64,000 nt of DNA, taken from the NCBI GenBank assembly GCA_000002435.2, contig CM018793.1. The stretch is one strand, 5' to 3'. The DNA is from Giardia intestinalis (Eukaryota). The notes beneath the pieces are model-generated. The model was not told where the DNA came from and did no database searches. It worked only from the letters and a program-made list of their open reading frames with translations. Position numbers and translations under genes: made by a program. Below are positions 73 through 61,087 of this stretch, in pieces. How positions within the stretch are numbered: position 1 is the first letter of the stretch; each line of letters starts with the position of its first letter.

Positions 73-79
73 AGTGAAT
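73..79 (+). terminator. Giardia poly(A) signal AGTGAAT (AGTRAAY) 11 nt after the VSP stop codon. It recurs at 1908, 3743, 5578 and 7413
   Basis: Exact match to the Giardia AGTRAAY consensus at the expected distance from the stop. One copy per repeat unit. Confidence 0.7.
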
Positions 80-130
80 GCTATGAGTGATGATAATGGG
101 TGATAGTGGGTGATAGTATGATAGTGGAGT

Positions 131-1897: not shown

Positions 1898-1965
1898 GTA
1901 CTTAGGTAGTGAATGCTATGAGTGATGATAATGGGTGATAGTGGGTGATAGTATGATAGTGGAGT

Positions 1966-3732: not shown

Positions 3733-3800
3733 GTACTTAGGTAGTGAATGCTATGAGTGATGATAATGGGTGATAGTGGGTGATAGTATGATAGTGGAGT

Positions 3801-5567
3801 GTGATATGCACAACAGCCAGTAACGGAGTATGCACTGCTTGTAATACAGCTAACGGCCTGTTCAAGAACCCAGCTACAGCACCGAAGTCTGGTAGTGAGT
3901 GCATCCTGTGCTGGGATACCAAGGGAGCAGATGGATATACGGGGGTGGCTAACTGCGCCACATGTACGGCACCAGCTAGTAGTCCAGGACCTGCCACGTG
4001 TACTGAGTGCAAGGCTGGGTACGTTACGAAGGACAGTGCATGTGAGAAGTGCCAAGGGAACTGTGCCACCTGTGAGACTGAGGCGACCCACTGTACCTCT
4101 TGTAAGGGAAATACGTTCCTGAAGACTGATACTAACACTTGCGTAGAGGCTGGTCAATGCACTGGAAATAAGTACCCCGACCCAAGCACCGGCAAGTGCA
4201 CAGCTTGTAACGCTCAAGAAGTGGGGATAGATGGATGCGACACATGTGAGTATGATACGACGCTGCAGAAGCCGAAGTGCCTGACCTGTACTGGTAAGAT
4301 AGTCAAGGAAGAGGCCGACGGGACGACCACCTGCATTGCTGAGGGGGCTTGTACCCAAAACGGGAACGATGGTCCGAACTTTCTAACTGAACCGAACAAA
4401 AAGTGCATTCTCTGCAATAACACTGCAGATTCAACCCCTGGCAATACAGGTGTTCTTGGTTGTAGCACATGCTCTAAAGCTAATTCTGGTACAAATCCTC
4501 AGTGCAAGACATGCCTCGACGGATACTACAATAGCGCAAATAGTGGTAGTGGTACCGCTACATGCACAGTCTGTGGCGAGAATTGCGCCACCTGCACTCA
4601 AGCTGGCAATAATCAGTGTACTAAATGCAAGCCTGGATTCTTCATGAAAGGCAGTGGTCCTACTGGTGAGTGCCTTCCTTGTGATAATGCACAGGAGGGC
4701 ATCGATGGATGTGCTGAGTGCACTGGTCCTGCAGGATCCCTCAAGTGTACAAAGTGCAAGCCTAACAGGAAGCCCGTTGGAACCTCAGACAACTATACAT
4801 GCACAGAGAAGACCTGCGAGGATGAGACTGCGTGTGGGGGTACCTCTGGTGCCTGTGATGCCATGATAATAGATGATAAGGGCAATGCAAAGCACTACTG
4901 TTCCTACTGTGGGGATAGTACTAAGTTCCCCATTGATGGACTATGTGTCAGTACTGGTAGCAATGCAAATGGTAATACTTGTACCAGTCATACATGTACA
5001 TCATGTGCTGCTAACTACTTCCTCTATATGAACGGCTGTTATAGTGTATCAGCTCAACCTGGCAACTACATGTGCAAGAAAGCAGATAATAATGGGATAT
5101 GCACAGAGGCGGCCAACAATAAGTACTTCATAGTCCCAGGGGCATCCAATCAGAATCAGTCTGTACTAGCATGTGGTAACCCCCTAGGCACACTAGTAGA
5201 TACTAAGGCATACGTGGGGGTCGAGGGCTGCTCTCAGTGTACAGCCCCGACAGCTCTAACAACAGCTGGCATGACCGCTGCTGTGTGTACCTCCTGTGAC
5301 AGTGATAGGAAGCCCAACAAGGATGGTACTGGGTGTGTGCTGTGCTCTGACACCAACTGCAAGAGCTGTGTGATGGACGGTGTGTGTGAGGAGTGCAACA
5401 GTGGCTTCAGCCTAGACAGCAGTGGGGCCTCCTGTGTGTCCTCTGGCGCCAACAGGAGCGGGCTCTCCACGGGGGCCATCGCGGGGATCTCCGTCGCCGT
5501 GGTCGTCGTCGTGGGGGGCCTCGTGGGCTTCTTGTGTTGGTGGTTTGTGTGTAGAGGGAAGGCGTAG
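3801..5567 (+). pseudogene. VSP copy 3. Its translation is identical to copy 2
   Basis: Identical translation to copy 2. Confidence 0.85.
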
Positions 5568-5635
5568 GTACTTAGGTAGTGAATGCTATGAGTGATGATA
5601 ATGGGTGATAGTGGGTGATAGTATGATAGTGGAGT

Positions 5636-7402
5636 GTGATATGCACAACAGCCAGTAACGGAGTATGCACTGCTTGTAATACAGCTAACGGCCTGTTCAA
5701 GAACCCAGCTACAGCACCGAAGTCTGGTAGTGAGTGCATCCTGTGCTGGGATACCAAGGGAGCAGATGGATATACGGGGGTGGCTAACTGCGCCACATGT
5801 ACGGCACCAGCTAGTAGTCCAGGACCTGCCACGTGTACTGAGTGCAAGGCTGGGTACGTTACGAAGGACAGTGCATGTGAGAAGTGCCAAGGGAACTGTG
5901 CCACCTGTGAGACTGAGGCGACCCACTGTACCTCTTGTAAGGGAAATACGTTCCTGAAGACTGATACTAACACTTGCGTAGAGGCTGGTCAATGCACTGG
6001 AAATAAGTACCCCGACCCAAGCACCGGCAAGTGCACAGCTTGTAACGCTCAAGAAGTGGGGATAGATGGATGCGACACATGTGAGTATGATACGACGCTG
6101 CAGAAGCCGAAGTGCCTGACCTGTACTGGTAAGATAGTCAAGGAAGAGGCCGACGGGACGACCACCTGCATTGCTGAGGGGGCTTGTACCCAAAACGGGA
6201 ACGATGGTCCGAACTTTCTAACTGAACCGAACAAAAAGTGCATTCTCTGCAGTAATAATGTAGATTCAACCCCTGGCAATACAGGTGTTCTTGGTTGTAG
6301 CACATGCTCTAAAGCTAATTCTGGTACAAATCCTCAGTGCAAGACATGCCTCGACGGATACTACAATAGCGCAAATAGTGGTAGTGGTACCGCTACATGC
6401 ACAGTCTGTGGCGAGAATTGCGCCACCTGCACTCAAGCTGGCAATAATCAGTGTACTAAATGCAAGCCTGGATTCTTCATGAAAGGCAGTGGTCCTACTG
6501 GTGAGTGCCTTCCTTGTGATAATGCACAGGAGGGCATCGATGGATGTGCTGAGTGCACTGGTCCTGCAGGATCCCTCAAGTGTACAAAGTGCAAGCCTAA
6601 CAGGAAGCCCGTTGGAACCTCAGACAACTATACATGCACAGAGAAGACCTGCGAGGATGAGACTGCGTGTGGGGGTACCTCTGGTGCCTGTGATGCCATG
6701 ATAATAGATGATAAGGGCAATGCAAAGCACTACTGTTCCTACTGTGGGGATAGTACTAAGTTCCCCATTGATGGACTATGTGTCAGTACTGGTAGCAATG
6801 CAAATGGTAATACTTGTACCAGTCATACATGTACATCATGTGCTGCTAACTACTTCCTCTATATGAACGGCTGTTATAGTGTATCAGCTCAACCTGGCAA
6901 CTACATGTGCAAGAAAGCAGATAATAATGGGATATGCACAGAGGCGGCCAACAATAAGTACTTCATAGTCCCAGGGGCATCCAATCAGAATCAGTCTGTA
7001 CTAGCATGTGGTAACCCCCTAGGCACACTAGTAGATACTAAGGCATACGTGGGGGTCGAGGGCTGCTCTCAGTGTACAGCCCCGACAGCTCTAACAACAG
7101 CTGGCATGACCGCTGCTGTGTGTACCTCCTGTGACAGTGATAGGAAGCCCAACAAGGATGGTACTGGGTGTGTGCTGTGCTCTGACACCAACTGCAAGAG
7201 CTGTGTGATGGACGGTGTGTGTGAGGAGTGCAACAGTGGCTTCAGCCTAGACAGCAGTGGGGCCTCCTGTGTGTCCTCTGGCGCCAACAGGAGCGGGCTC
7301 TCCACGGGGGCCATCGCGGGGATCTCCGTCGCCGTGGTCGTCGTCGTGGGGGGCCTCGTGGGCTTCTTGTGTTGGTGGTTTGTGTGTAGAGGGAAGGCGT
7401 AG
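5636..7402 (+). pseudogene. VSP copy 4, a mosaic: it has the copy-1 allele at site A (SNNV) and the copy-2 allele at site B
   Basis: Its translation equals copy 1, but its alternate-frame ORFs match copies 2 and 3 around 6540-6580. Confidence 0.85.
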
Positions 7403-7470
7403 GTACTTAGGTAGTGAATGCTATGAGTGATGATAATGGGTGATAGTGGGTGATAGTATGATAGTGGAGT

Positions 7471-9186
7471 GTGATATGCACAACAGCCAGTAACGGAGTA
7501 TGCACTGCTTGTAATACAGCTAACGGCCTGTTCAAGAACCCAGCTACAGCACCGAAGTCTGGTAGTGAGTGCATCCTGTGCTGGGATACCAAGGGAGCAG
7601 ATGGATATACGGGGGTGGCTAACTGCGCCACATGTACGGCACCAGCTAGTAGTCCAGGACCTGCCACGTGTACTGAGTGCAAGGCTGGGTACGTTACGAA
7701 GGACAGTGCATGTGAGAAGTGCCAAGGGAACTGTGCCACCTGTGAGACTGAGGCGACCCACTGTACCTCTTGTAAGGGAAATACGTTCCTGAAGACTGAT
7801 ACTAACACTTGCGTAGAGGCTGGTCAATGCACTGGAAATAAGTACCCCGACCCAAGCACCGGCAAGTGCACAGCTTGTAACGCTCAAGAAGTGGGGATAG
7901 ATGGATGCGACACATGTGAGTATGATACGACGCTGCAGAAGCCGAAGTGCCTGACCTGTACTGGTAAGATAGTCAAGGAAGAGGCCGACGGGACGACCAC
8001 CTGCATTGCTGAGGGGGCTTGTACCCAAAACGGGAACGATGGTCCGAACTTTCTAACTGAACCGAACAAAAAGTGCATTCTCTGCAATAACACTGCAGAT
8101 TCAACCCCTGGCAATACAGGTGTTCTTGGTTGTAGCACATGCTCTAAAGCTAATTCTGGTACAAATCCTCAGTGCAAGACATGCCTCGACGGATACTACA
8201 ATAGCGCAAATAGTGGTAGTGGTACCGCTACATGCACAGTCTGTGGCGAGAATTGCGCCACCTGCACTCAAGCTGGCAATAATCAGTGTACTAAATGCAA
8301 GCCTGGATTCTTCATGAAAGGCAGTGGTCCTACTGGTGAGTGCCTTCCTTGTGATAATGCACAGGAGGGCATCGATGGATGTGCTGAGTGCACTGGTCCT
8401 GCAGGATCCCTCAAGTGTACAAAGTGCAAGCCTAACAGGAAGCCCGTTGGAACCTCAGACAACTATACATGCACAGAGAAGACCTGCGAGGATGAGACTG
8501 CGTGTGGGGGTACCTCTGGTGCCTGTGATGCCATGATAATAGATGATAAGGGCAATGCAAAGCACTACTGTTCCTACTGTGGGGATAGTACTAAGTTCCC
8601 CATTGATGGACTATGTGTCAGTACTGGTAGCAATGCAAATGGTAATACTTGTACCAGTCATACATGTACATCATGTGCTGCTAACTACTTCCTCTATATG
8701 AACGGCTGTTATAGTGTATCAGCTCAACCTGGCAACTACATGTGCAAGAAAGCAGATAATAATGGGATATGCACAGAGGCGGCCAACAATAAGTACTTCA
8801 TAGTCCCAGGGGCATCCAATCAGAATCAGTCTGTACTAGCATGTGGTAACCCCCTAGGCACACTAGTAGATACTAAGGCATACGTGGGGGTCGAGGGCTG
8901 CTCTCAGTGTACAGCCCCGACAGCTCTAACAACAGCTGGCATGACCGCTGCTGTGTGTACCTCTTGTGGTGAGAGTAAGAAGCCCAACAAGGATGGCACT
9001 GGGTGTGTGCTGTGCTCTGTGGGTGATTGCAAGAGCTGTGTGATGGATAATATATGTGGGGAGTGCAACAGTGGCTTCAGCATAGACAATGGTAAGTGCG
9101 TGTCCTCTGGCAGTAATAGGAGCGGGCTCTCCACGGGGGCCATCGCGGGGATCTCCGTGGCTGGTCTCGTTGGGCTTCTGTGTTAG
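7471..9186 (+). pseudogene. VSP copy 5, the terminal copy. Its last ~230 bp have diverged and the TM region is shortened, so it ends ...VAGLVGLLC* without CRGKA
   Basis: Identical to copies 2 and 3 up to about 8955, then about 85% identity with an internal deletion in the TM segment. The stop is at 9184-9186. Confidence 0.85.
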
Positions 9187-27111: not shown

Positions 27112-27185
27112 GGTCCGATAGTGTAGCTGGTTAGCACGTTCGCTTGACGTGCGAGAGGTCCGGAGTTCGAGTCTCCGTCGGATCA
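27112..27185 (+). tRNA. tRNA-Val, anticodon GAC
   Basis: Cloverleaf with acceptor GGTCCGA/TCGGATC, D arm GTGT-AGCTGGTTA-GCAC, anticodon stem TTCGC/GCGAG with loop TTGACGT, and T arm CGGAG-TTCGAGT-CTCCG. Close homology to eukaryotic tRNA-Val. Confidence 0.85.
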
Positions 27186-28142
27186 CTTTCCGTTCACTGC
27201 GCGCGGGCCGCTGAGGTCGAGGGCCCGCACGGCCCCCACGACGCCCGCCGTGCTGCCGAGCCGGGGGAGCTCCGGCAGGGGCGGTGCTGACCGCCCGGTG
27301 CAGCCAGAAAGAGCTCCCAGCCTCCGGGAAAGCAGGGAAACGAGTCTTTTCGCCTCGGCGAGGAAGGAAAGCGGCTCCTGCTGCGCTACATGCTTCTCCG
27401 AGCTAGAGACAGACTCCATCACCAAACGCACCTGCTGCGTGAGGTCATTGATTTCTCTGGTAAGCGCCTCCCGATGCACGCCTGCGAGTCGAGTGAGTGC
27501 CCGTTCTAGAGTCACAAATCTCTCTGTAATTACATTAATGATTTCCACCTTTCGGTTGTTTAGATTACTAACTGCTTCCTCCAGCTGTAGATCCAGGTCG
27601 TGCTGCTGGCGTCTGAGCCTCCAGACATGCTTGCGAATCTCTGCAACTGCTAGGCGGATTGCAGTGGTCTTGTTGTGGATCGTGTTTCCAAAGTGCTCCG
27701 CCGCCTCTGTTATAGTGAGCAAGGCCTTCTCAGTGTACAAGGCTGACGACGCGCAGGATGTACAAATAAGCTCACCGGTTTGTACACAAAAGTAGTGGAC
27801 AGAGGTGTTTTTTGTATCTTTGTGGCTTAGTGCCTGACATGTGACAGGAATCAAAGCTGGTAGCTCCGGCGTTATCTTAGAATCTATTGAGGTGAGATGC
27901 GGCGAGATGGCCAAGCAAAAAGGGCACTCCATAGTATCAGGCGGGAGAGATTTGTTTCCCTCCACCAGTACCACAATGCAACGATCGCAGAACGTGTGTC
28001 CACAACCGAGCATAAATGCTTTGCTGAGCGAGAGACAGCATAGGTCGCAGTACCCTCTCTCCCAGTTGGCCGGGGCATCTTCTATGGCATGTATCACTGA
28101 CTTGTGGACGCCCTGTTGGCTATTCCGTAGTCCACGAATCAT
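27183..28142 (-). CDS. RING-finger, B-box-like and coiled-coil (TRIM-like) protein
   Basis: C3HC4 RING CDLCCLSLSKAFMLGCGHTFCDRC...CPFC, then a Cys/His box HYFCVQTGELICTSC...EH, then heptad-rich helices. ATG (rc) at 28140-28142. The stop overlaps the last 3 nt of tRNA-Val. Confidence 0.75.
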   Translation of the reverse strand: MIRGLRNSQQGVHKSVIHAIEDAPANWERGYCDLCCLSLSKAFMLGCGHTFCDRCIVVLVEGNKSLPPDTMECPFCLAISPHLTSIDSKITPELPALIPVTCQALSHKDTKNTSVHYFCVQTGELICTSCASSALYTEKALLTITEAAEHFGNTIHNKTTAIRLAVAEIRKHVWRLRRQQHDLDLQLEEAVSNLNNRKVEIINVITERFVTLERALTRLAGVHREALTREINDLTQQVRLVMESVSSSEKHVAQQEPLSFLAEAKRLVSLLSRRLGALSGCTGRSAPPLPELPRLGSTAGVVGAVRALDLSGPRAVNGK

Positions 28143-47862: not shown

Positions 47863-48825
47863 ATGAATTCTGCTGCGAAGCTGGATCGGCAGCTGTCCCA
47901 GATCCTCGAGCAGGTGCGGATACGGGCAGGGTCGCTGAGCACTGGGAGCCGTATAATCATAGAAAAGTGGGTTCTGAAGCTAATGGAGCAGCAGAGCCAT
48001 CTGGAATGGAAGAAGAATCGCAACCTCTACGGGGTCTATCTCCTCGACATGCTCATGAAGCGAACGCTTGACGATCCGTTTAATAAACGTCCACCAGACA
48101 CAGCGCTTCCAACTCTTCCGTCACACATAAAGCAGTATTACGGACGCATGACAAGCGAGATTTTGACGCGCAGCATAGACGAAACAGGCCTAGATCATGC
48201 TGTAGGGAAGTCAGGAATGGGAAAGTCTGTTTTGCGAGCCTCTTCTACATCTAGCGTTGGTAAGCTCGGGTTTAAGAATTCAGCCGTTAACAACACTCCC
48301 GCGTCTAACGACAGCAGGCTGCGCTCCTTATCTAATGCATCTAAGGTGCTTACTTCTGCTACAGCCATATACACACCTCATTCTAGTAACCACCCGTCCG
48401 CTCCCAATCTCAATGCCGACTTTGGGCTATCAAAGCCTTCTGCACCGTCTACTGCTTCTTTAACTGACAACTATCCTCCCGACCCTGTCGGGGCATTGCT
48501 AAGGCGGATTTATAACCCTGCGCCGGTACATGCCGAGGGCATCCATCATGAAAACAATGAGTATCAGCAACACTCAGCAATGCAAGGTGCCCCTTTGCTG
48601 TCTTCTCTAGACACGCTAGCCACTGCACCACATTCAGACCAGGTAGAGCATCAACTTACTGCTTCAAAACTTCGAATCCAGGAGCTAGAGAGCGAGATTC
48701 TGAACTATAAGAATGAAATAACGTCCCTTAAGCGTGTTATAGAGGCACTCAAGGCAGAGGATTTTGCACTAGAGAAAACGGCCAGACAAATCCACGCTGA
48801 AGCTTTATCAATCGTATCTATGTAA
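47863..48825 (+). CDS. Hypothetical protein with a C-terminal coiled coil
   Basis: ATG at 47863. The 320-aa ORF ends 38 bp before the left arm of the inverted repeat. Confidence 0.6.
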   Translation: MNSAAKLDRQLSQILEQVRIRAGSLSTGSRIIIEKWVLKLMEQQSHLEWKKNRNLYGVYLLDMLMKRTLDDPFNKRPPDTALPTLPSHIKQYYGRMTSEILTRSIDETGLDHAVGKSGMGKSVLRASSTSSVGKLGFKNSAVNNTPASNDSRLRSLSNASKVLTSATAIYTPHSSNHPSAPNLNADFGLSKPSAPSTASLTDNYPPDPVGALLRRIYNPAPVHAEGIHHENNEYQQHSAMQGAPLLSSLDTLATAPHSDQVEHQLTASKLRIQELESEILNYKNEITSLKRVIEALKAEDFALEKTARQIHAEALSIVSM

Positions 48826-49135
48826 ATTATTTTGCCACATATACTACGCCAATCTCGTGTTCGCTTCGGGCTCTACGTGGAGACGCGGGGCGCGCGGGTC
48901 GAGGCCTACGGGGCGGGCGCGGCCGGGACGCGGCTGCTCGGGGCGGCAGAGGTCCGGCTCGGGGGCCTGCTCGACGGGCGGGAGGTGCAGGCGGAGGCCC
49001 CGCTGGTCTGGGCAGGCGCAGAGATCGGGCGCGTGGCGGCGCGGATCGCGGCGGAGCAGGCGCTCCGAGTCCAGAAGTAAACAGCACAACCTGCAAACAC
49101 AGAAGCGCTTGTACTGTATGTGTTGGCGCTCCCGC

Positions 49136-49206
49136 GCATCAATGGTTTAGGGGTAGAATGCTTGCTTGCCAAGCAAGAGAGCCGGGTCCGAGTCCCGGTT
49201 GATGCA
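49136..49206 (+). tRNA. tRNA-Gly, anticodon GCC
   Basis: Acceptor GCATCAA/TTGATGC, anticodon stem CTTGC/GCAAG with loop TTGCCAA, and T arm CCGGG-TCCGAGT-CCCGG. Near-identical in layout to eukaryotic tRNA-Gly(GCC). Confidence 0.9.
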
Positions 49207-49427
49207 CTTTTCGCCCGGCCCGAGAAAACGGCCATCATATCATTACAGGGAGCGGGCTCAGGTGCATCGGCCCACACTGCGCCGAGACCTCATGAGGACC
49301 TCCCGCCTACTGTGCGTACAGTTACCTAAACGCATCTGTAATGGCTAAAGCACGCGGCGAGTAAGCGACCAGTTGAGAGAGCAAAGGTAGCTACCTCAGC
49401 AGGCCAGAGCAAGCAAGTAGGCAGTAG

Positions 49428-51150
49428 ATGTGTTCACTACCGAGCTCCCTCCTGGGGCAGCCCTCGGAGTGGGAGTCTCAGAGAGGAGGCCGCCGGGCAC
49501 CCCCACCCGCTGCACGCAATCCGGTCCACACCACAGCCTTTCTACTGATACCCCTGTTGGTGGTGAGCACCATCGCAGTGACCTGCCGATCAGATGGGAA
49601 CCATACAGCGACCTGCCAGACAGACAAGTGCGAGACGGTCGGTAGCACAGAGATCTGCACCCAGTGCAGGGCCGGGGCGTCCCGGTCGACGGCTTCTGCT
49701 GGCCCCCCGGCTCCATCCAGGCCGCGGCAGCCGGGTGCACCAAAGCAGACGGGGCTGCCCTCGACAAGACGGCAACCACCTGTGGAAAGTGCGGCGATGG
49801 GTACCTCCTCTTCATGGGCGGATGCTACAACAAGGATGCACACCCTGGCAGTGACATATGCACAGCAGCCAAGGATGGAGTATGCACTGCTTGTAAGGCA
49901 GATAACGGCCTGTTCAAGAACCCGGCTGCACCATCAGAGAAGGGTAGTGAGTGCATACTCTGTCATGATGCCACGGGAGCAAATGGATATAAGGGAGTGG
50001 CTAACTGCATACAGTGTCAGGCACCACAGAGTGCAGGAGCAGCTACATGCACTGCCTGTCAAGATGGATACTACAAGAACTCTCAGACATGTGAAAGGTG
50101 TGATGAAGCTTGCCTGACCTGTGAGACTGATGCGGCCCATTGTACCTTTTGTAAGGCCGGGAAGTATCTCGATGGGGATCAATGTGCTGATATCTGTGGA
50201 AGTGGCAATGATAAGTATGCTGACGAAGCTACCAGAACGTGCAAGGCATGTAGTACAATAACTGGGTGCACCGCGTGTGAATATAATCCAGTGACCAAGA
50301 AGCCAAAGTGCACCGCTTGTAGTGATAAGAAGGTGAAGACAGAGCTTGACGGGACAACCACTTGTGTAGATGCAAATGGGTGCGCAACAGATAACGTCGA
50401 CGGATCCCACTTTCTAAATCAAGCTAGAAATAAGTGTCTTCTTTGTAGCGATGACAAGACTAATACTAGCAGTCCACCTAATAAAGGACTTAAGGATTGT
50501 GGTAGGTGCAAAAAAGAAAGGGATGATGCAGCTTCAACCTGCTCAGAATGTCTGTCTGGATTTTATTTAGAAGACGCTTGCAAGACCTGTGATGCTAACT
50601 GTGCCGTGTGCTCTGAAAAAACACTAGTGGATAAGTGTAAAATATCCATGCAAGAGTGACTTTTAACCGGGATAGATGAAGGAAAGTGCATTAAGTGTGA
50701 TGCGAAGGCGGCTGAGAATACTTATGTCAGCGTTGAGGGCTGCCTCTCTTGCATAACTCCAACCACCCCAGGTCCGGCCAGCCGCGACCGCTGCAAGATC
50801 GGCTACACGTTACAGGGAGCAACGTGCGCGAAGGTATGCGAGGACGAGACTTCATGTAGAGGTACCTCCGGCTCTTGTGATGCTATAGTAATCGATGCTA
50901 ATGGAAAGGAGCTTCACTGCTCTCATTCGGCAGAGGAGCAGATAACGTGCCAAATGATGGGAAGCGTGTTAATAAAAACAGTACAAACGGAAATACTTGT
51001 GATAATCCTGTCTGTGAGTCTTACAATCAGGGATGCTTCTTATCTACAGGCGGTACCACCAGGTAGTAGACCTACCCAACAGTTACATGTGCAAGAGAGC
51101 AGATGGTGGCATTTTCACAGAAGCAGCAAGCGACAAGTACTTCGTGGCCT
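49428..51150 (+). pseudogene. VSP pseudogene, frameshifted and 3'-truncated. It keeps the signal-peptide and N-terminal region that the tandem-array units lack
   Basis: Frame A reads ...FLLIPLLVVSTIAVTCRSDGNHTATCQTDKCE. It shifts near 49680 into frame B (ORF 49664..50659: GGCYNKD...GVCTACKADNGLFKNP...), which stops at 50659. VSP-like text then continues in other frames (KCIKCDAKAAENTYVSVEGC..., YMCKRADGGIFTEAASDKYF) to about 51150. There is no TM or CRGKA. Confidence 0.8.
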
Positions 51151-53738
51151 TTGATATTATGCTGCTGGACTCGTCTGGGTGTGGTCCAGAGGTCTCACGA
51201 GTGGCCCTCGCTCAATTCCTGACCAATCCAGACGAGGGTTGGTTTTGGATAACATAACGAAAGATTCCCACCCATCAGTACATCCAGAGCCTAGCGCCTT
51301 CCCTGGTCGCTCTGTGGGTGTGTGCTCAGACCGAATGCGTACTTCGGTCCTTTCGGGGTTCAGGCCTTCTTACGGACTCTCTGGTCCACCAGTGGCGCCT
51401 CTTCTTGGTCTTCCTTCGTGGCGGGTGAAGCTCCGGTCGCTGTCTTTTTTAGATGCCCCGTCCGCCAGGGGCTGCCATCGGGCTCTCCGCTGGCTGGGCC
51501 CTCGGTGTCCGGGCAGCTGTGGCTCGAGTCAGTGCTCCCACGGTCGCGGTCACGTAGGTCTCAGTGGGCCGGCTGGTGGGTGAGGCAGGGGTATGGGGCG
51601 GTGAGGCTGGTGGGGACTGGTGGGGGCTGAGGTGGGGGGTGTCTGTATGTGCCTCTGGTCCCTCGATAGACTGGGGTGATCATAGCTGTGGTGACTGGGG
51701 GCTGTCCATCTGTGACTCACCCCTCTGTGTGCTCGTGGTCTGTGAGTGCCTCCACCCAGACAACCCTCAGGAGCCGTGCACACCAGACAGAGAGGATGAC
51801 CAAGGGGAGTCAAGTATCCCTGCCATGAGGGTGCACAGCAGCCAGCCTGGGCTGCATGGCCTGCTCAAGCGATGTAGTGACAGACGACTCCCTCTGACAG
51901 CAGCCCTGGTGACTGCACTGGTCTGCTCTCGAGGCTGAGTGACAGTGTGCACAGATGGACATGAGTGTAGGAGGGCCATCCACACACGGACAGACTGTGT
52001 GGACCCAGAGAGGACTGGAGTCTGCTCGGGACACGCTGACTGTAGACCTCATGCGAGAGCCCCAGACAGCCACCCGAGAGGCAGTGACAGACACGGGCAC
52101 CAGAGATCCCTAGCCAGACACATTGCTATGCTCATCCACAGGGGCATCAGAGGGCCAGGTGGAGTCACCCTCACAGTCAGGGCCTGGTAGGAAGCCAGAG
52201 GACTCACGCAGCACAGCAGAGCAGGCCCAAGGGAGGCACACTCCAGGCAGGTGAGCAGTGGCAGAGCCCTGACAGCTGCCAGCCCCCATGACACCCAGGC
52301 AGGCACCAGACTCACCGAAGACTCCGCTGGCCTCCATCGATGACCCGAGGGGGCAGCGACCAGAGGAGTGAGGAGGCCTTCGGACACCACAAGAGGCCCG
52401 GCTGTCCAGCAGGCGATGGAGCACAGGTGACCTCTGAGCACCACAAAGGCACAGGAGCCGACCATCAGAGTGATGCCCGATCACAGAGACGACCACGAGC
52501 ACCCTCCACCCACTCTGAGGGGCTGTCGATCATCCCACTGCCTCTCATAGCAGACCTCCTTGGAGGCAGTGCAGTGGGTGGCCCAGCTCATGCACGCCTC
52601 CCTCAGTATAGGGTGCCCCGACTCTCCCCGAGAAGTCATCAGAGCCACGAGGAGGGGTCAAGGTCCTGGTGGACCACATCGGGAACTCCTCGAGGGCACA
52701 GCAGGTGAGGTATGGGTAACCATCAGCGTGCTCCTCTCTGCATGATAGAGCATCCTGAGACCAAGGAGGATCACCTCTGCCTACGGACGACACACAGCGC
52801 TCCACAACGAGGACCCACCAGGAGCAGCACAGCTGACCACGGAGACAGTGCAGTCACTGGTGCCCCACCATGCCAGTCTTCTGAGCCATCACACTAGAGG
52901 CACGAGAGAACCCCATCCCATCCACAGGGTCATCCACACCCCTGCTGGTCCCAGGCGAACTACCGTCGAGGCACTGGACAGGGCATGCCAGGGGGCTCAG
53001 CAGACACGCACAGAGCAACAGGAGAGGCTGCGATGGCCTGCCTCAGTCCTCACGTACCGGCCAGGCAGAGAGGCAGTACTGCCCGAGGCATGCAGGGGCC
53101 AGGGAGGCACTCAGTCAGGGGGACACGACACGATCGTCGGTGCCTGTGTCTTGGAGTGCAACGAAGGCTGGGGATCAGACACAACCACCTTAGCAAACAG
53201 AGCGGGGATCACCCCAATGACCCACCGAACCCAGGGGCACATACAGACACCCCCCACCTCAGCCCCCACCAGTCCCCACCAGCCTCACCGCCCCATACCC
53301 CTGCCTCACCCACCAGCCGGCCCACTGAGACCTACGTGACCGCGACCGTGGGAGCACTGACTCGAGCCACAGCTGCCCGGACACCGAGGGCCCAGCCAGC
53401 GGAGAGCCCGATGGCAGCCCCTGGCGGACGGGGCATCTAAAAAAGACAGCGACCGGAGCTTCACCCGCCACGAAGGAAGACCAAGAAGAGGCGCCACTGG
53501 TGGACCAGAGAGTCCGTAAGAAGGCCTGAACCCCGAAAGGACCGAAGTACGCATTCGGTCTGAGCACACACCCACAGAGCGACCAGGGAAGGCGCTAGGC
53601 TCTGGATGTACTGATGGGTGGGAATCTTTCGTTATGTTATCCAAAACCAACCCTCGTCTGGATTGGTCAGGAATTGAGCGAGGGCCACTCGTGAGACCTC
53701 TGGACCACACCCAGACGAGTCCAGCAGCATAATATCAA

Positions 53739-55461
53739 AGGCCACGAAGTACTTGTCGCTTGCTGCTTCTGTGAAAATGCCACCATCTGCTCTCTTGCAC
53801 ATGTAACTGTTGGGTAGGTCTACTACCTGGTGGTACCGCCTGTAGATAAGAAGCATCCCTGATTGTAAGACTCACAGACAGGATTATCACAAGTATTTCC
53901 GTTTGTACTGTTTTTATTAACACGCTTCCCATCATTTGGCACGTTATCTGCTCCTCTGCCGAATGAGAGCAGTGAAGCTCCTTTCCATTAGCATCGATTA
54001 CTATAGCATCACAAGAGCCGGAGGTACCTCTACATGAAGTCTCGTCCTCGCATACCTTCGCGCACGTTGCTCCCTGTAACGTGTAGCCGATCTTGCAGCG
54101 GTCGCGGCTGGCCGGACCTGGGGTGGTTGGAGTTATGCAAGAGAGGCAGCCCTCAACGCTGACATAAGTATTCTCAGCCGCCTTCGCATCACACTTAATG
54201 CACTTTCCTTCATCTATCCCGGTTAAAAGTCACTCTTGCATGGATATTTTACACTTATCCACTAGTGTTTTTTCAGAGCACACGGCACAGTTAGCATCAC
54301 AGGTCTTGCAAGCGTCTTCTAAATAAAATCCAGACAGACATTCTGAGCAGGTTGAAGCTGCATCATCCCTTTCTTTTTTGCACCTACCACAATCCTTAAG
54401 TCCTTTATTAGGTGGACTGCTAGTATTAGTCTTGTCATCGCTACAAAGAAGACACTTATTTCTAGCTTGATTTAGAAAGTGGGATCCGTCGACGTTATCT
54501 GTTGCGCACCCATTTGCATCTACACAAGTGGTTGTCCCGTCAAGCTCTGTCTTCACCTTCTTATCACTACAAGCGGTGCACTTTGGCTTCTTGGTCACTG
54601 GATTATATTCACACGCGGTGCACCCAGTTATTGTACTACATGCCTTGCACGTTCTGGTAGCTTCGTCAGCATACTTATCATTGCCACTTCCACAGATATC
54701 AGCACATTGATCCCCATCGAGATACTTCCCGGCCTTACAAAAGGTACAATGGGCCGCATCAGTCTCACAGGTCAGGCAAGCTTCATCACACCTTTCACAT
54801 GTCTGAGAGTTCTTGTAGTATCCATCTTGACAGGCAGTGCATGTAGCTGCTCCTGCACTCTGTGGTGCCTGACACTGTATGCAGTTAGCCACTCCCTTAT
54901 ATCCATTTGCTCCCGTGGCATCATGACAGAGTATGCACTCACTACCCTTCTCTGATGGTGCAGCCGGGTTCTTGAACAGGCCGTTATCTGCCTTACAAGC
55001 AGTGCATACTCCATCCTTGGCTGCTGTGCATATGTCACTGCCAGGGTGTGCATCCTTGTTGTAGCATCCGCCCATGAAGAGGAGGTACCCATCGCCGCAC
55101 TTTCCACAGGTGGTTGCCGTCTTGTCGAGGGCAGCCCCGTCTGCTTTGGTGCACCCGGCTGCCGCGGCCTGGATGGAGCCGGGGGGCCAGCAGAAGCCGT
55201 CGACCGGGACGCCCCGGCCCTGCACTGGGTGCAGATCTCTGTGCTACCGACCGTCTCGCACTTGTCTGTCTGGCAGGTCGCTGTATGGTTCCCATCTGAT
55301 CGGCAGGTCACTGCGATGGTGCTCACCACCAACAGGGGTATCAGTAGAAAGGCTGTGGTGTGGACCGGATTGCGTGCAGCGGGTGGGGGTGCCCGGCGGC
55401 CTCCTCTCTGAGACTCCCACTCCGAGGGCTGCCCCAGGAGGGAGCTCGGTAGTGAACACAT
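53739..55461 (-). pseudogene. Inverted duplicate of the VSP pseudogene
   Basis: Mirror of 49428..51150. Confidence 0.8.
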
Positions 55462-55682
55462 CTACTGCCTACTTGCTTGCTCTGGCCTGCTGAGGTAGCT
55501 ACCTTTGCTCTCTCAACTGGTCGCTTACTCGCCGCGTGCTTTAGCCATTACAGATGCGTTTAGGTAACTGTACGCACAGTAGGCGGGAGGTCCTCATGAG
55601 GTCTCGGCGCAGTGTGGGCCGATGCACCTGAGCCCGCTCCCTGTAATGATATGATGGCCGTTTTCTCGGGCCGGGCGAAAAG

Positions 55683-55753
55683 TGCATCAACCGGGACTCG
55701 GACCCGGCTCTCTTGCTTGGCAAGCAAGCATTCTACCCCTAAACCATTGATGC
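55683..55753 (-). tRNA. tRNA-Gly, anticodon GCC, the inverted duplicate
   Basis: Exact reverse complement of 49136..49206. Confidence 0.9.
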
Positions 55754-55808
55754 GCGGGAGCGCCAACACATACAGTACAAGCGCTTCTGTGTTTGCAGGT
55801 TGTGCTGT

Positions 55809-57800
55809 TTACTTCTGGACTCGGAGCGCCTGCTCCGCCGCGATCCGCGCCGCCACGCGCCCGATCTCTGCGCCTGCCCAGACCAGCGGGGCCTCCGCCT
55901 GCACCTCCCGCCCGTCGAGCAGGCCCCCGAGCCGGACCTCTGCCGCCCCGAGCAGCCGCGTCCCGGCCGCGCCCGCCCCGTAGGCCTCGACCCGCGCGCC
56001 CCGCGTCTCCACGTAGAGCCCGAAGAGGGGGCTTTGTGTAACAGAGAGGTTCCGCGCTACAAATTCTAGTTCCAGCTGAAGTTGCCGTCGAGTTCCATTG
56101 AATTCTATGGCACGAGATACGAGAGGCTGAAAGTCCCAGAAATGCACAACGATGAATATATAGTGTGTGTTCTCCAAGGCATCTGCGGGGAGAAGATCTC
56201 GTTTGAGGTAGAGATTTGATATAGATATTTCATATGTAAGTTCATCGGCATCCTTGTCTGTATCTATAGAAAACAATTCTTCCGACTGATTTTGCTCGAT
56301 TATGCTGGACTTAACTGAAATATCAACGGTGTCTGCCATCTGGATACTAGGCTCTGGATCAACAAACTGGACAACATTATGGAGCTGCTGCTCTGACTGC
56401 TGAGTAACACTAGGATTGCTGGGAGTAGGCCCCGGTATATTACCGGGTAGGTGTTGTAAAGCATACCCTTGATGATGAGTGTTTGTCTCCATCACTGGAA
56501 ATGCTCTGATTGGGTCAGGCAGCTCACAGAAAGGCATGCTTAACTGCTCACAATCGTGCGGATCAACGGTCTCTCCACTTGCAATAAGGCGTGCTTGATA
56601 CTCCTCTAACATAATCTTGCACATCTTCATCCGCGCCGAAAATTGATCAGCGTCTGCTTGGCGTCGGGTCCTAAGCTCCAAGAGGGCTCTCCTTCCATCC
56701 CCAACTTGTTTGGTCAAGAGGTCTATTTCTGTTTGCTTTTGCTTCAGATCTTGCTTAAGTTCATTCTTTTCTTTGTCATGACGTGCAGCCTCCGTAGCAA
56801 GTGCAAGAGAGTGCTTTTCAGCCTGAAGATCTATATTGCTGTCGGCCTGCTTTCGTTCTGAGGCAAGCTTGCTCTCGTATTCAGTCCGTAAGCGCGAGAG
56901 TTCATAGGTGGACTTTTCTGTCAATTGTGATATCTGCGCCTTACTTTCTGCCTGAAGCACCTCATACTGTGCATGGATCGTGGCGCATTCCTTTCGTGTG
57001 GCCTCCAACTCTGCAGTGAGCCTTGCTATTTCCAAAGCCTTGGAGTCAAGTTCCTTCCTAAACTCTGCATTTGCTGATGCGCGACTATTGTCATCCGTTG
57101 TCCTGAGCTTGTCATAGAGCCGTTCATTTTCCAGCTTGAGTCTATTGTGTGCATCCTTGATTACAGCTAATTCAGTAGACGCCTGGGCTAGTTGCGCCTT
57201 TAGATCTGTTGCGTTTTTGTCACTAAGATAGCTAGTAGAGCTGAGTTCAGACTTCAATTTGATGTTTTCTGCCTGCAACTCGTCATTATCTTTCTCCATT
57301 TTTGTATGTAGCTCCTTTGCCCGCCCAACCTCCTCCTGCATGCTTAGGGCAGACTTTTCGCTCTGTTCTAACTGGGACGTCAACTCAGCGATCCTTTGCG
57401 TTTTACTTTCATCAGACTTGCGTAGTAATTCGTACTGCTCACGAAGGTAGATCAGATTTCGGTACAAGTCACCATATTTGGAGGTTAAGGATGCTAGCTC
57501 AGCCTTGACTGAAATAAGCTTTTCTTCCGCGCTACCAATCTCTGCCAAGGCTCTGCGATCGGATTTTCCTTGCGCGGATATGGACGAATTGTCTGTATCA
57601 GAATCTGCAAAATAGTTGCACAGTTCGCGCCGGACAGCCATGTGGGCCTCATTTTCAACCTTCAGCTTCCTCTTAAGCCCTATGATTACATGCTTCAGCA
57701 TTTTGACTTGGGCATGTACGTTTGCTGGAAGGAGCTTCTCCAGCTCTGCCAGCTCCTGTATGTCGTCGGTAGACAGGTCGCTCATAATGGAGCTGGCCAT
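55809..57800 (-). CDS. Coiled-coil protein (663 aa). Its last 72 codons are encoded by inverted-repeat sequence
   Basis: The start was set to the ATG (rc) at 57798-57800, MASSIMSDL. The track start 57950 is TTG and would overlap the divergent gene. The body is heptad-rich and K/E/L-rich. The tail GLYVETRGARVEAYGAGAAG...RVQK comes from about 80% GC repeat DNA. Confidence 0.75.
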   Translation of the reverse strand: MASSIMSDLSTDDIQELAELEKLLPANVHAQVKMLKHVIIGLKRKLKVENEAHMAVRRELCNYFADSDTDNSSISAQGKSDRRALAEIGSAEEKLISVKAELASLTSKYGDLYRNLIYLREQYELLRKSDESKTQRIAELTSQLEQSEKSALSMQEEVGRAKELHTKMEKDNDELQAENIKLKSELSSTSYLSDKNATDLKAQLAQASTELAVIKDAHNRLKLENERLYDKLRTTDDNSRASANAEFRKELDSKALEIARLTAELEATRKECATIHAQYEVLQAESKAQISQLTEKSTYELSRLRTEYESKLASERKQADSNIDLQAEKHSLALATEAARHDKEKNELKQDLKQKQTEIDLLTKQVGDGRRALLELRTRRQADADQFSARMKMCKIMLEEYQARLIASGETVDPHDCEQLSMPFCELPDPIRAFPVMETNTHHQGYALQHLPGNIPGPTPSNPSVTQQSEQQLHNVVQFVDPEPSIQMADTVDISVKSSIIEQNQSEELFSIDTDKDADELTYEISISNLYLKRDLLPADALENTHYIFIVVHFWDFQPLVSRAIEFNGTRRQLQLELEFVARNLSVTQSPLFGLYVETRGARVEAYGAGAAGTRLLGAAEVRLGGLLDGREVQAEAPLVWAGAEIGRVAARIAAEQALRVQK

Positions 57801-57826: not shown

Positions 57827-60800
57827 ATGGACGAATCTCACAGTGATCAACTACTGGATTATAGTGACGCAGTGCGCAGGATTTTATCAGCAAGTAGGTC
57901 ATCACTAGACCGTTCTGGTCGCCTTCATCAAAGGAGCCTTCCCATGACAACCGAAGACAGTTCCTGGCAAGGCGGAGCAGCAGCCTTGCAGGATTCTTTG
58001 GACGAGCCTCGCACCATCCCTCCAGTAGCAGAAGGCTCGCAGAAGCCTAATACAGCCGATGGCTATCTAACCTCATCTATGTTGGAGTTAGCAAACTCTA
58101 TGATCCACCAACCACGCCAATCTCCTGTTGTCGAGATTTTATCTCAAGCGCGACTAGAGATAGAAAGAAATCGTCAAGAAATCGACTTGCTACGCGCAAG
58201 CCTGTCTACAAAAGACAAACGGGTGACAAGCTTAGAGCATGAGCTGGATGCGTCCAGACAGCTTGCTTCCTCACTAACAGATCAGCTCAAAGCGCAGATC
58301 CAGGTTGCATCATCGGGATCTGTGCACGATCCAGTGCTACTAGCATACTCATTTAGTATGCAGACAATAGGCCCTGCTGTCTTGGATACTGGGCTCCAGG
58401 CGGATAACTTGAATGATAACACAGATCACAAGGAAGTAGAGAGATTGCAAGCAAAATTAGAGCAGATTACAAGTGAATATGAGGCACTGAAGATGGAGCA
58501 TGAAGACTCCCAGCTGAGGTTGGCGTCGGCCAAAAGCGAGAACGAATTCACTTCATTCAAAGCATTCCTCGAGTACAATCAACTGAAAACTGCACACGAA
58601 AATGCACTTACGCAGATCAATGCTGTCGAAACAGAAAACAGCCTGATGGATCATCAGGTGAAAGAGCTGACCTCTCAGCTTGAGATACTAAAAGAGGAGA
58701 ACGGCAAGCTTCTTTCTAAGGTGTCGGCCCTCGAAACAGAAGCTCTAAGCATACAGACACGGTATGACTCTGTCAAGGAGCAGAGCAGCATCTTGTGCAC
58801 GGAGAGTAAAAAGGTCGAGGAGTTGCTTAAGCAGCGAATAAACAATTGTCTGGATGAGTTGGTAGCAGCACGAACAGAAAGTGCAGAAAAGTCAAGTCGA
58901 CTTGACGATTGCACAAATGCATACATGAAAAAGTCAGAAGAGTTAGCAGCGGAGACGCAGCGATTCAAATCGCTGTTGCAGGAAGCTGCAGATTCCAACG
59001 AGCAGCTTGTAAGCCAGTGCAGAGACTTGGAAGAACGCTTGGCCAAGCAACAGACAGCGCATACGTCCGCAAGCAACGCTGTTAGTACAGCGCTGGTAGA
59101 GGCACAAAAGGGTAAAGAGGCACTTGAAAGCGAAGTAAGCGATGTACGCACGGCGCTCAGTCAAGCCATGGATGCGATAGAAGTTCTGAAAGCCGAAAAT
59201 GCTTCTTTACGGAAGAATACGGAGAAGAGCAACATATCAATAGCTGCACGGATGGATGCGGCCATATTAGCAAACAAGGCCAGTTTCGAGCTGCGAATAG
59301 CTCAACTAGAAAGAGAATTGGACGGAGCCCGCTCCGAGACATCTGTAGTCAATATAAAGCTCGCAACCCAGACAGCGCTAGTGGGGCAATCTCAGAAGGA
59401 AATTGACATTCTTAAAATATCCTTAGCAACGGCAGAAAATACTATTTCAACGCTGCAGCAAGCACTGGCCACATATACCGAGGAGGGGAACCTTAAACAG
59501 CAATATGATGCAACAACAGAGCAAAATGTAAAGCTCGCTGAAAGGGTTAAAGAGCTAGAAGTAGAACTGGATAAGCGGAAAACAAAGGAGCACGCCCTGA
59601 GCAAAGACCTCGAGTTTCTTAAAGAAAGCGCTGATAACTTGGCGAGAAAATGTGAACGTAGAGGTTCAGCCAAGTCTGAGCTACAGAATGCACTAAAAGA
59701 AAGGGATGCACAGTTGTCAGAGAAGGCTGTAGAGTTAGAAGTTCAAAAGTCCGAGTTTTCTGCACAGATTGCCCTATTGGAGGCTCACGCTCAGAGCGAT
59801 GCAGAACAACTGCGGAAGCTTAGCTTAGAAAAGGAAGAGCTGAACTCACAAATAAACGGCCTGAAGCAAGATGTTGCCAAACTCCAGATAGAGTTGGACA
59901 AAAAGGACATACAAACAGAGCAGGCCCGCACAAATACTATCAATACCATTAACTCCATATCGGCTGAGAACAAGTCACTTCTTCTCCGCCTTGAGCAAGC
60001 CACTGATGAGACATCCCGGTTACAACTGTCCAGCCAAAAGGCCACCACAGACATCATTCACCTTAAGCAAGAGATGGAGCAGCTCAGACAAGAGAATTCA
60101 GGCCTTCGCATGGAGTTAAAGGAGGCACTTACAAATAAGAACAAAATAGAAGCCCAAGCGAATGCTGATGTTGATGCATTGACTGCACGGATAAGTGAGA
60201 TGGTTAATGAAAGAAATGCTTACGAAAAAGAGCGACAGGAGCTGATGACTCTGTTAGAAGACAAGGAGTCGAGTCTGGACGCTGCACAGATAACAATTTC
60301 CAGCCAGATAAGCCACAAAAGGATCGCAGAGTCTTTATGCACAGAAAATAGCGCACTCAGGCTAGAACTGGAGCAGATTCGTCTCAACTCTGAACAGCTT
60401 ATTACTGAATCGAGACGGCAAAACGAAGAGTTGCTGCGTAAAAATCATTCCGTGCAACGTGCTCTCAACGAAAAAACACACGCACTTGATATGACGGTAG
60501 GCTTACTGAAGGAAGGCAAAGACACAGTGCAGCAGCTTCAGCAGGAAAAGGATATGCTGTTGAAGAAAATCGCTGAGCAGCAGGGGCTTGTGGGGTCTCT
60601 TCAAAGCAAGCTTGTTGCAAGGGACGCAGAACACGCCTCCCAACTGTTACAACTGGAGCTCCAGACCCAGGAGTATGCAACAGAGCTACGACAACTTACG
60701 GACCTTCACAAGAACTATCGCAAATCCATCGAGGCAGGAGATATCGCGGTCGCAGAAAAGCTTAATGCGCTGGCAGAGATCAATAGGGAGATAAGCCGAA

Positions 60801-61087
60801 GCTCTCATAGCAGAACACCTACATCACTCTCTACCGTAGACAGTATTAACGAGGGTAATTTGAGCAAGTCTACTAGAGCTCCTTTCGCGTCTAACATATC
60901 GAGTAAGCTGGGACTATCAGGGATAGGTGGCCACGGTTTCCGGGCCAAGGAAAAGCCTGCTTCTGCCTCATCAAATTGGGATGCCGTTGCTAGCATAGAT
61001 GAAGAAGTCACGCGGCTCACCATGCTTCGAGAGGAGCTCCAGCGCTCTATGCAGGGCAACAAGCACCCAATAAAGTATACCGAGTGA
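57827..61087 (+). CDS. Large coiled-coil protein (1086 aa)
   Basis: ATG at 57827. Long uninterrupted heptad-rich ORF. Confidence 0.8.
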   Translation: MDESHSDQLLDYSDAVRRILSASRSSLDRSGRLHQRSLPMTTEDSSWQGGAAALQDSLDEPRTIPPVAEGSQKPNTADGYLTSSMLELANSMIHQPRQSPVVEILSQARLEIERNRQEIDLLRASLSTKDKRVTSLEHELDASRQLASSLTDQLKAQIQVASSGSVHDPVLLAYSFSMQTIGPAVLDTGLQADNLNDNTDHKEVERLQAKLEQITSEYEALKMEHEDSQLRLASAKSENEFTSFKAFLEYNQLKTAHENALTQINAVETENSLMDHQVKELTSQLEILKEENGKLLSKVSALETEALSIQTRYDSVKEQSSILCTESKKVEELLKQRINNCLDELVAARTESAEKSSRLDDCTNAYMKKSEELAAETQRFKSLLQEAADSNEQLVSQCRDLEERLAKQQTAHTSASNAVSTALVEAQKGKEALESEVSDVRTALSQAMDAIEVLKAENASLRKNTEKSNISIAARMDAAILANKASFELRIAQLERELDGARSETSVVNIKLATQTALVGQSQKEIDILKISLATAENTISTLQQALATYTEEGNLKQQYDATTEQNVKLAERVKELEVELDKRKTKEHALSKDLEFLKESADNLARKCERRGSAKSELQNALKERDAQLSEKAVELEVQKSEFSAQIALLEAHAQSDAEQLRKLSLEKEELNSQINGLKQDVAKLQIELDKKDIQTEQARTNTINTINSISAENKSLLLRLEQATDETSRLQLSSQKATTDIIHLKQEMEQLRQENSGLRMELKEALTNKNKIEAQANADVDALTARISEMVNERNAYEKERQELMTLLEDKESSLDAAQITISSQISHKRIAESLCTENSALRLELEQIRLNSEQLITESRRQNEELLRKNHSVQRALNEKTHALDMTVGLLKEGKDTVQQLQQEKDMLLKKIAEQQGLVGSLQSKLVARDAEHASQLLQLELQTQEYATELRQLTDLHKNYRKSIEAGDIAVAEKLNALAEINREISRSSHSRTPTSLSTVDSINEGNLSKSTRAPFASNISSKLGLSGIGGHGFRAKEKPASASSNWDAVASIDEEVTRLTMLREELQRSMQGNKHPIKYTE

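Follow-up and report, generated by a model that had tools for sequence, protein, structure and literature searches.

Did a gene acquire its 3′ end from a repeat, or does the repeat hold a copy of the gene's own end? The question is raised by a 64 kb stretch of Giardia intestinalis WB clone C6 (the window), in which the 663-amino-acid (663-aa) 'Coiled-coil protein' gene runs at its 3′ end into a large inverted repeat, or palindrome, so that its last codons lie in extremely GC-rich repeat DNA. The original prediction for this locus left two alternatives: either a duplication carried the end of the gene along with it, or the native end was replaced by repeat sequence of foreign composition and the reading frame now runs on to the first stop encountered. 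The comparisons described below make it highly probable that the GC-rich tail is the native 3′ end of the gene. This confidence covers a core of connected points, namely that the tail is native, that the duplication ran from right to left, that the junction is old, that the arms evolve in concert and that the GC-rich block is persistent. The further step to GC-biased gene conversion is rated separately, at somewhat below an even chance. The features on which the argument depends are the following.

55809-57800, minus strand: 663-aa 'Coiled-coil protein' gene, ATG at 57800, stop codon at 55811-55809
55809-56025, minus strand: tail segment of this gene, the outermost 217 nucleotides (nt) of the right arm; 71 codons plus stop
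55851-56246, minus strand: C2-like domain, residues 519-650; Pfam C2-C2_1 (PF11618), first C2 domain of RPGRIP1
55807-55813, minus strand: AGTAAAC, overlapping the stop codon; kept in the B-like orthologue
55682-55753, minus strand: tRNA-Gly(GCC) of the right arm; ARAGORN and Rfam, 60.8 bits
53231-56025: right arm of the palindrome, from repeat comparison
51659-53230: unique spacer between the arms, 1,572 nt, GC 0.58-0.67
48864-51658: left arm of the palindrome, from repeat comparison
49136-49207, plus strand: tRNA-Gly(GCC), left-arm copy; ARAGORN and Rfam
48864-49080, plus strand: left-arm copy of the tail, a half-domain fragment without upstream coding context
47863-48825, plus strand: GL50803_005070, a DUF4485 protein adjoining the left arm; Pfam DUF4485, E 1.3e-19

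The product of the 663-aa open reading frame (ORF) has exactly the sequence annotated as XP_001703956.2 / KAE8304827.1 in G. intestinalis WB C6, and consists of an N-terminal coiled coil (residues 1-480) and a C-terminal C2-like domain. The two arms of the palindrome, 2,795 nt each, are 100% complementary. Within the gene, the boundary of the right arm falls at the third base of the Leu592 codon, and F593-K663 (71 codons) together with the stop codon lie inside the repeat, at 55809-56025. That the gene ends in GC-rich repeat DNA from position 56025 had been seen correctly; the figure of 72 residues given for this part becomes 71 codons plus the stop, and the peptide quoted for it has 70 aa. 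From the outside inwards, each arm contains the gene tail, a 58-nt stretch (the stop codon plus a 55-nt spacer of ordinary composition), tRNA-Gly(GCC) and a cysteine-rich VSP-like ORF. The right-arm tRNA gene lies 55 nt downstream of the stop of the coiled-coil gene, and is found in the same place in a B-like and an AII-like contig (L001 and L002, respectively). On the left, the same 216 base pairs (bp) at 48864-49080 do indeed follow an unrelated gene, as had been noted: GL50803_005070 has no relation to the coiled-coil gene, and its stop lies 38 nt before the tail copy. The AGTAAAC at the end of the coiled-coil gene fits AGTPuAAPy, which we take to be the Giardia polyadenylation motif, and is a candidate poly(A) signal.

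The base composition changes at the junction. GC content rises from 0.49 over the last 100 nt outside the arm to 0.79 over its coding part, with 0.468 for the gene body; the 150-nt peak within the tail (0.83) is the highest in the window, where the 99.9th percentile is 0.813. Gly, Ala, Arg and Pro account for 51% of the tail as opposed to 20% of the remainder of the protein. Five of the six reading frames across the block are fully open and the sixth has two stops, so that the earlier description of all six as open holds for five. GC content at the first, second and third codon positions of the tail (GC1/GC2/GC3) is 0.875/0.54/0.94 in WB and 0.90/0.57/0.92 in the B-like lineage, which on the sequences compared is a periodicity of the kind that GC pressure would give to DNA coding in this frame. 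Among the tail-specific tryptic peptides are VEAYGAGAAGTR, LLGAAEVR and LGGLLDGR.

The tail belongs to the orthologues as well. A search with the whole protein recovered one protein of 99% identity (AII-like) and five of 81% identity from human gut metagenomes (P0002-P0006), the latter being taken, from their sequences, to be assemblage-B-like. In all of these proteins, the tail is of the same Ala/Gly/Arg-rich type, with no insertions or deletions and with the stop in the same position. The B-like contig L001 is collinear with window positions 58611-55674, through the junction, the tail, the stop codon and tRNA-Gly; homology ends at 55674. Tail and tRNA-Gly, roughly 350 bp of the arm, are common to the B-like lineage. 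In L001 the GC content jumps at the same codons, from 0.40 upstream to 0.80 within the tail, with GC3 rising from 0.26 to 0.92, and the same tail and jump are present in L003. The suggestion of a chimeric 3′ end of foreign composition does not survive this comparison, since B-like orthologues share the length of the tail, its stop and the GC jump. Orthologues ending in the same tail in the absence of the repeat had been named as the observation that would decide the matter; the same Ala/Gly/Arg-rich tail is present in orthologues from other assemblages, and the repeat itself turns out to be ancient.

A partial, assemblage-E-like orthologue in a Logan contig (P0017) ends ...SPLFALYVEIGRAHV and appears to skip from the start of the tail (LYVE) to near its end (EIGR...). 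Either some E isolate would have lost about 150 nt internally, or the contig would be misjoined in a stretch of high GC content and low complexity.

Substitution patterns between A and B differ on the two sides of the junction at synonymous sites only. The proportion of nonsynonymous differences (pN) is 0.17 on both sides; that of synonymous differences (pS) is 0.20 in the tail and 0.69-0.72 elsewhere in the gene, where the corrected synonymous divergence (dS) is saturated at 1.8-2.5. Because GC pinning caps pS in the tail at 0.20, the ratio of nonsynonymous to synonymous divergence is uninformative about constraint there. Coding constraint on the tail was therefore judged by the codon-position periodicity of GC and by the domain match.

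This domain match extends across the junction. The C2-C2_1 profile is matched at positions 7-135 of 143, running over the junction at residue 592, with 25.1 bits for the whole protein and 26.2 bits for the last 173 aa (E 1.9e-5 and 8.7e-6, respectively). The WB tail alone reaches 16.4 bits at profile positions 75-135, and the B-type tail alone 15 bits at positions 72-123; the 101 residues upstream of the tail, taken alone, do not match the profile. The B-type C-terminus as a whole scores 23.3 bits, and B-like orthologues overall 21.9-23.3 bits. The controls were negative for C2-C2_1 throughout, whether they consisted of four other frames of the block, of the real head with a reversed tail, or of the real head with two shuffled tails. 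Most of the profile is covered collinearly and in a frame-specific manner. An AlphaFold2 model of the last 193 aa is of low confidence (mean predicted local distance difference test, pLDDT, 43; predicted template modelling score, pTM, 0.45) and has seven strands, four of them in the tail. The top Foldseek match of this low-confidence model was 2YRB, the first C2 domain of KIAA1005, which we take to be RPGRIP1L (E 1.4e-6, TM score 0.42-0.50); among the other matches listed, nearly all are C2 domains or C2-containing proteins.

In the mechanism proposed here, the GC-rich 216-bp segment would encode the C-terminal half (about four β-strands) of a β-sandwich of the RPGRIP1 'C2-C2_1' type that follows the coiled coil. 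An ancient inverted duplication would have copied this gene end and the adjacent tRNA-Gly to the far side, beside GL50803_005070, and the interior of the resulting palindrome would now hold a tail-to-tail VSP-like pair. The right-arm copy would be the working gene end, and the left-arm copy a functionless half-domain fragment. Arm-to-arm gene conversion would keep the arms identical, while the cargo of the interior would turn over between lineages. The tail is not a random graft, because it supplies, in register, the missing half of a domain whose other half is encoded directly before it. No coding context precedes the left copy; therefore the duplication ran from right to left, carrying the gene end and the tRNA gene. 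Of the two alternatives originally offered, it is thus the duplication of a gene end that is upheld, with the right-arm copy ancestral and the 216 bp on the left a copied fragment.

The age of the palindrome can be read from contigs of other lineages. In isolate P15 (assemblage E), one contig carries the coiled-coil gene and breaks off after 24 codons of the tail, and another (L005) carries the DUF4485 gene and breaks off 81 nt past the gene stop; both finish in the same 45 nt of tail sequence, and have P15-specific bases, different from those of WB, in common. Two further lineages come from sequencing runs ERR3333378-81 (L009/L010 and L011/L012), which may represent the dog assemblages C and D. 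In the DUF4485 protein they are 72% identical to WB, and at the corresponding place downstream of its gene their contigs run 21-31 nt into tail-like sense sequence. In the AII-like lineage, six independent left-arm contigs (L013-L018) share every variant relative to WB with the right-arm copy in L002; among these are two amino-acid replacements in the tail, a deletion of 30 nt and, within the first kilobase, more than 50 substitutions. Lineage-specific variants thus stand in both arms of a structure that is older than the splits, as concerted evolution demands. Given that the junction is present in several lineages and that variants are shared between arms, the 100% identity of the arms reflects gene conversion and not youth. 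As far as these contigs go, the palindrome predates the split of several assemblages.

The interior of the palindrome has a different history. Two VSP-like copies face each other there.

49428-50659, plus strand: VSP-like cysteine-rich copy, left arm; Pfam VSP, E 9.8e-11; tblastn against L002
54230-55461, minus strand: VSP-like copy, right arm; ORF list and tblastn

The ORFs listed for these copies, 49664-50659 (plus strand) and 54230-55225 (minus strand), are arranged tail to tail with 3,570 nt between them. Relative to the AII-like orthologue in L002, the WB copy has a frameshift near codon 25 in its 5′ part; its ORF ends ...CKISMQE at an in-frame stop (50657-50659), beyond which the Cys-rich frame continues. 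The CRGKA end by which a bona fide vsp gene is recognised was absent from a three-frame translation of 50501-51760, and the WB copies are, from their sequence, probably pseudogenes. Between A and B, the interior of the arm differs beyond the tRNA gene; the VSP cargo has therefore been exchanged. No internal inverted repeat was found in the B-like contig L001, which is only 6 kb long.

The AII-like VSP-like gene is intact and encodes 400 aa (L002 9525-10727); it ends, as in WB, at an in-frame stop with the Cys-rich frame continuing after it. In the window, the VSP-like gene regions occupy 49428-51000 and 53890-55461. Divergence between WB and AII is about 10% plus a 30-nt insertion or deletion in the VSP-like gene, 0.65% in the outer 620 nt of the arm and 0.55% in the unique flank.

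Other accounts of the tail have to be set beside a native one. The perfect identity over 2.8 kb might have been made by the assembler, and the junction inside the gene with it; inverted vsp pairs are indeed known to disturb Giardia assemblies (PMC2996952). Independent read sets and isolates, however, contain both outer junctions: that on the left is present in L004 and L013-L018, that on the right in L001, L002, L003 and L006, and P15 has both. L004, from a WB-like read set, crosses the left junction exactly as the window does. Because both junctions are seen in independent data, the palindrome is not an assembly artefact, an explanation to which hardly any credence is left. If it is real, its arms look recent at 100% identity, and the GC jump falls within a few bases of the repeat boundary. 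A recent chimera would account for this, in which repeat DNA of foreign composition took the place of the native 3′ end and the ORF, with five of six frames open, extended by chance to the first stop. Such an event is extremely improbable, since the tail, its length, its stop and the GC jump are all present in orthologues of 81% identity, and since arm identity is accounted for by concerted evolution. The idea that the frame simply runs on past a lost native end also conflicts with synteny in the B-like contig through the junction to tRNA-Gly, and with a single domain profile that is matched collinearly over the junction in the real frame only.

The replacement could instead have preceded the split of the assemblages, so that all of them inherited a foreign tail, taken from the left-arm copy or from a donor since lost. 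A junction common to several lineages agrees with this, conservation among assemblages alone gives no direction of copying, and no orthologue was recovered outside G. duodenalis. Such an ancient chimera is nevertheless very improbable. The tail matches profile positions 72-135 and the sequence upstream positions 7-74 of the same domain, and a random insert in register is very unlikely; the left copy lacks coding context; and a foreign composition would decay over a dS of more than 1.8, yet GC3 is still 0.92-0.94 in both lineages. Neither mark of a chimeric gene, orthologues without the new end or a domain interrupted at the junction, was observed.

Several observations do weigh against a native tail of the kind proposed. 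The C2-C2_1 scores lie below the Pfam gathering score of 29.2 bits and do not reach the family threshold; the structure model is of low confidence, as its mean pLDDT indicates, and membership of the domain family draws on sub-threshold but consistent signals. In the tail, pN is about equal to pS with GC pinned, and substitution rates alone cannot prove constraint at the protein level. No homologue of the C-terminal domain was found outside G. duodenalis: with the last 173 aa, phmmer against 1.84 billion representatives returned only Giardia and two spurious low-complexity matches, and phmmer of the domain against PDB sequences only chance matches. A word-indexed search with the same 173 aa at E ≤ 0.01 found none, an unreliable null given that proteins of 99% and 79% identity were in the collection; such nulls are not trustworthy for GC-rich or low-complexity queries. 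A scan of Joint Genome Institute (JGI) metagenomes for the start of the tail in its A, B or E form gave no match, and a literature search for the accession of the coiled-coil protein found nothing. Finally, the two B-like contigs that contain the DUF4485 gene (L007, L008) break off 27 nt past its stop, short of the position at which a palindrome in assemblage B would have its left junction.

A native tail still has to be reconciled with its composition. Among the differences between A and B in the tail, 16 of 39 (41%) are exchanges between G and C; for the rest of the gene the corresponding counts are 8 of 128 and 3 of 244. Comparison of the two lineages demonstrates a persistent force favouring G or C in the block. 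A foreign origin is set aside because synonymous sites between A and B are saturated and GC3 is nonetheless equally high in both lineages. A foreign or ribosomal-DNA-like origin of the block is in this way ruled out; its composition is actively maintained, and its sequence is homologous between the two lineages. The force itself could be GC-biased gene conversion, arising from the palindrome and/or from a recombination-prone tRNA neighbourhood, which would keep third positions at G or C and would have pushed the amino acids of the tail towards Gly, Ala and Arg. This is inferred because the block lies in demonstrably converting sequence, because VSP 3′ ends in the window, likewise prone to conversion, have a GC3 of 0.86, and because genes in Giardia conversion tracts have been reported as GC-enriched (PMC12669663). 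That GC-biased conversion maintains the tail block is a tentative proposal, possible but not quite an even bet; the fuller statement, that the 214-bp block has been pinned in the long term by conversion tied to the ancient palindrome and/or a recombination-prone tRNA neighbourhood, is rather doubtful.

Part of the difficulty lies in the block itself and part at another tRNA gene of the window.

27112-27186, plus strand: tRNA-Val, the second independent tRNA gene of the window
27183-28142, minus strand: 319-aa gene with a Cys-rich N-terminus and a coiled coil, convergent with tRNA-Val

The block of about 214 nt has sharp edges in both lineages, one of them the stop codon, and the 58-nt stretch from stop to tRNA, although inside the arm, has a GC content of only 0.52 in WB and 0.40 in B. 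Furthermore, a GC spike of 0.83 at 27200-27299 lies beside tRNA-Val, where there is no inverted repeat, and there the 319-aa gene has a GC3 of 0.90 in its last 40 codons as against 0.57 in the remainder. These points count against biased conversion and in favour of selection on the nucleic acid, in which the reading of the protein would be right but the block would be kept GC-rich as a nucleosome or insulator element between an RNA polymerase II gene and an RNA polymerase III tRNA gene, or as a G-rich 3′ element prone to R-loops or G-quadruplexes (G4). The coding strand of the block has 12 runs of at least three G and one run of at least three C; a third, milder case occurs at the second tRNA-Val, in L002; and among about 25 non-VSP ORFs in the window, the highest 3′-end GC3 values belong to the two that adjoin tRNA genes. 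On the other hand, only three loci are involved, the G-richness follows from Gly, Ala, Arg, Glu and Val codons, no Rfam family matches the block, and the literature searched documents no such mechanism for Giardia; a search on GC-rich flanks of Giardia tRNA genes in particular gave nothing relevant. Selection of this kind is unlikely, though far from negligible. A tRNA-neighbourhood effect, through a recombination hot spot or through selection on DNA, may be the primary cause, and the palindrome boundary may have formed merely at the edge of the GC-rich block.

The end of the 319-aa gene looks like the same phenomenon as the tail of the coiled-coil gene. Its tail is rich in Ala, Gly, Arg, Pro and Leu (...GRSAPPLPELPRLGSTAGVVGAVRALDLSGPRAVNGK), and its stop overlaps the 3′ end of tRNA-Val by 4 nt. 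The third tRNA locus lies beyond the right end of the window, with tRNA-Val at L002 470-544. A 1,116-aa gene (L002 552-3902, minus strand) ends 8 nt from it, with a GC3 of 0.83 in the last 60 codons and 0.57 before; the flanks of this tRNA gene have a GC content of 0.60-0.70 for about 300 nt on each side.

Some further features of the locus may be recorded. The spacer at 51659-53230 contains no convincing gene in the ORF list and no known RNA in Rfam; Rfam searches of the GC block and the spacer, with E allowed up to 1, yielded the tRNAs and otherwise only sub-threshold chance matches, and no tandem repeats were detected. The centre of the palindrome (the spacer and the inner arm ends, 51300-51658 and 53231-53600) has a GC content of 0.58-0.70, with a strong excess of A over T on one side and of T over A on the other, spurious-looking ORFs and no Rfam match. 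The contig L004 (Logan SRR22286252) is otherwise identical to WB and has a 7-nt deletion (TGTTGGC) in the left arm, equivalent to window positions 49121-49127, between the stop codon of the tail and tRNA-Gly; the deletion may distinguish the two arms in that stock, or may have arisen in assembly. At its other end, the coiled-coil/C2 gene is head to head with a 1,086-aa coiled-coil gene (57827-61087, plus strand); the two ATGs are 27 nt apart, and the shared upstream region is very short. At the left end of the window, positions 1-9170 contain five head-to-tail copies of a 1,835-bp unit that are 100% identical, followed by a sixth, diverged copy. Each unit has a 307-aa VSP-type ORF whose 3′ end has a GC3 of 0.86, compared with 0.48 otherwise, and Cys-rich genes with a GC content of 0.68-0.70 continue to about 14.2 kb.

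For annotation, the consequence is that the gene model of XP_001703956.2 is sound and calls for no label of fusion or truncation, and that the left-arm 216-bp copy, called by gene finders as a protein of 67-79 aa, is a relic. In at least this case, an identical inverted VSP-type pair is old and not a recent duplication, with a conserved outer junction, converted arms and replaceable cargo. The locus offers a compact test case for a possible GC bias of gene conversion in Giardia, and suggests that tRNA genes may be linked to GC spikes where neighbouring genes end. If conversion is indeed the cause, the GC-pinned block would be a direct, datable footprint of biased conversion reshaping half a domain towards Gly, Ala and Arg, in a protist whose capacity for recombination is debated, and inverted vsp pairs regarded as 'recent' would in fact be old palindromes whose cargo can be exchanged. 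The tail itself is ordinary once explained; the by-products are an ancient palindrome evolving in concert, a half-domain pinned at high GC and the GC spikes that adjoin tRNA genes.

GC-biased gene conversion tracts that enrich Gly, Ala, Arg and Pro codons have been described in mammals, birds and yeast. The Giardia block resembles them in its local GC3 spike (0.94), in its proportion of these residues (0.51, against 0.20) and in lying in converting sequence. It differs from them in that its edges are sharp, with one at a stop codon, and in that the spacer within the arm is not GC-rich.

In its order of domains, a coiled coil followed by a C2-like domain, the protein is similar to the N-terminal portion of RPGRIP1L. 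In RPGRIP1 and RPGRIP1L the N-terminal C2 domain (PF11618) has been described as RPGRIP1N-C2 (Zhang and Aravind 2012, PMC3495828). The full architecture of RPGRIP1L comprises the coiled coil, RPGRIP1N-C2, a PKC-type C2 domain and RPGRIP1C-C2 (PMC3495828). Unlike RPGRIP1L, the Giardia protein has neither the central PKC-type C2 nor the C-terminal RPGRIP1C-C2, and ends 13 residues past the domain match; in contrast to the RPGRIP1 domain, the second half of its own consists of Gly, Ala, Arg and Pro to 51%, and the score stays under the Pfam gathering threshold. An RPGRIP1L orthologue is not claimed, in view of this score, of the missing remainder of the architecture and of the report that Giardia lacks all known transition-zone proteins (PMC4092220). 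Given that report, the weak resemblance merits a proper look, as a lead only.

The palindrome belongs to a known class, the inverted vsp pairs of Giardia. Adam et al. (2010) found 14 identical inverted pairs in G. lamblia WB, 2-4 kb apart, whose flanks remain identical until they diverge abruptly 139-729 nt from the coding region, and thought that they might be recent (PMC2996952). Here, too, two identical inverted ORFs lie 3,570 nt apart, and identity ends abruptly, at 48864 and 56025. Depending on whether the VSP-like ORF is counted from the ATG at 49428 or from 49664, the point of divergence precedes it by 564 nt or 800 nt, the latter figure being slightly past the published range. Unlike the published pairs, this one has its point of divergence inside a neighbouring housekeeping-type gene, of which 71 codons are duplicated together with a tRNA gene; its cargo is degenerate, its outer junction is common to several assemblages and its arms evolve in concert.

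Large palindromes that are homogenised by arm-to-arm gene conversion are familiar from the human Y chromosome and from the inverted repeats of plastids. The Giardia arms differ from these in being only 2.8 kb long, in carrying cargo that differs between A and B beyond the tRNA gene, and in a GC bias that we infer. In common with them, the arms are near-identical within a genome while the structure is far older, and each lineage carries its own variants in both arms.

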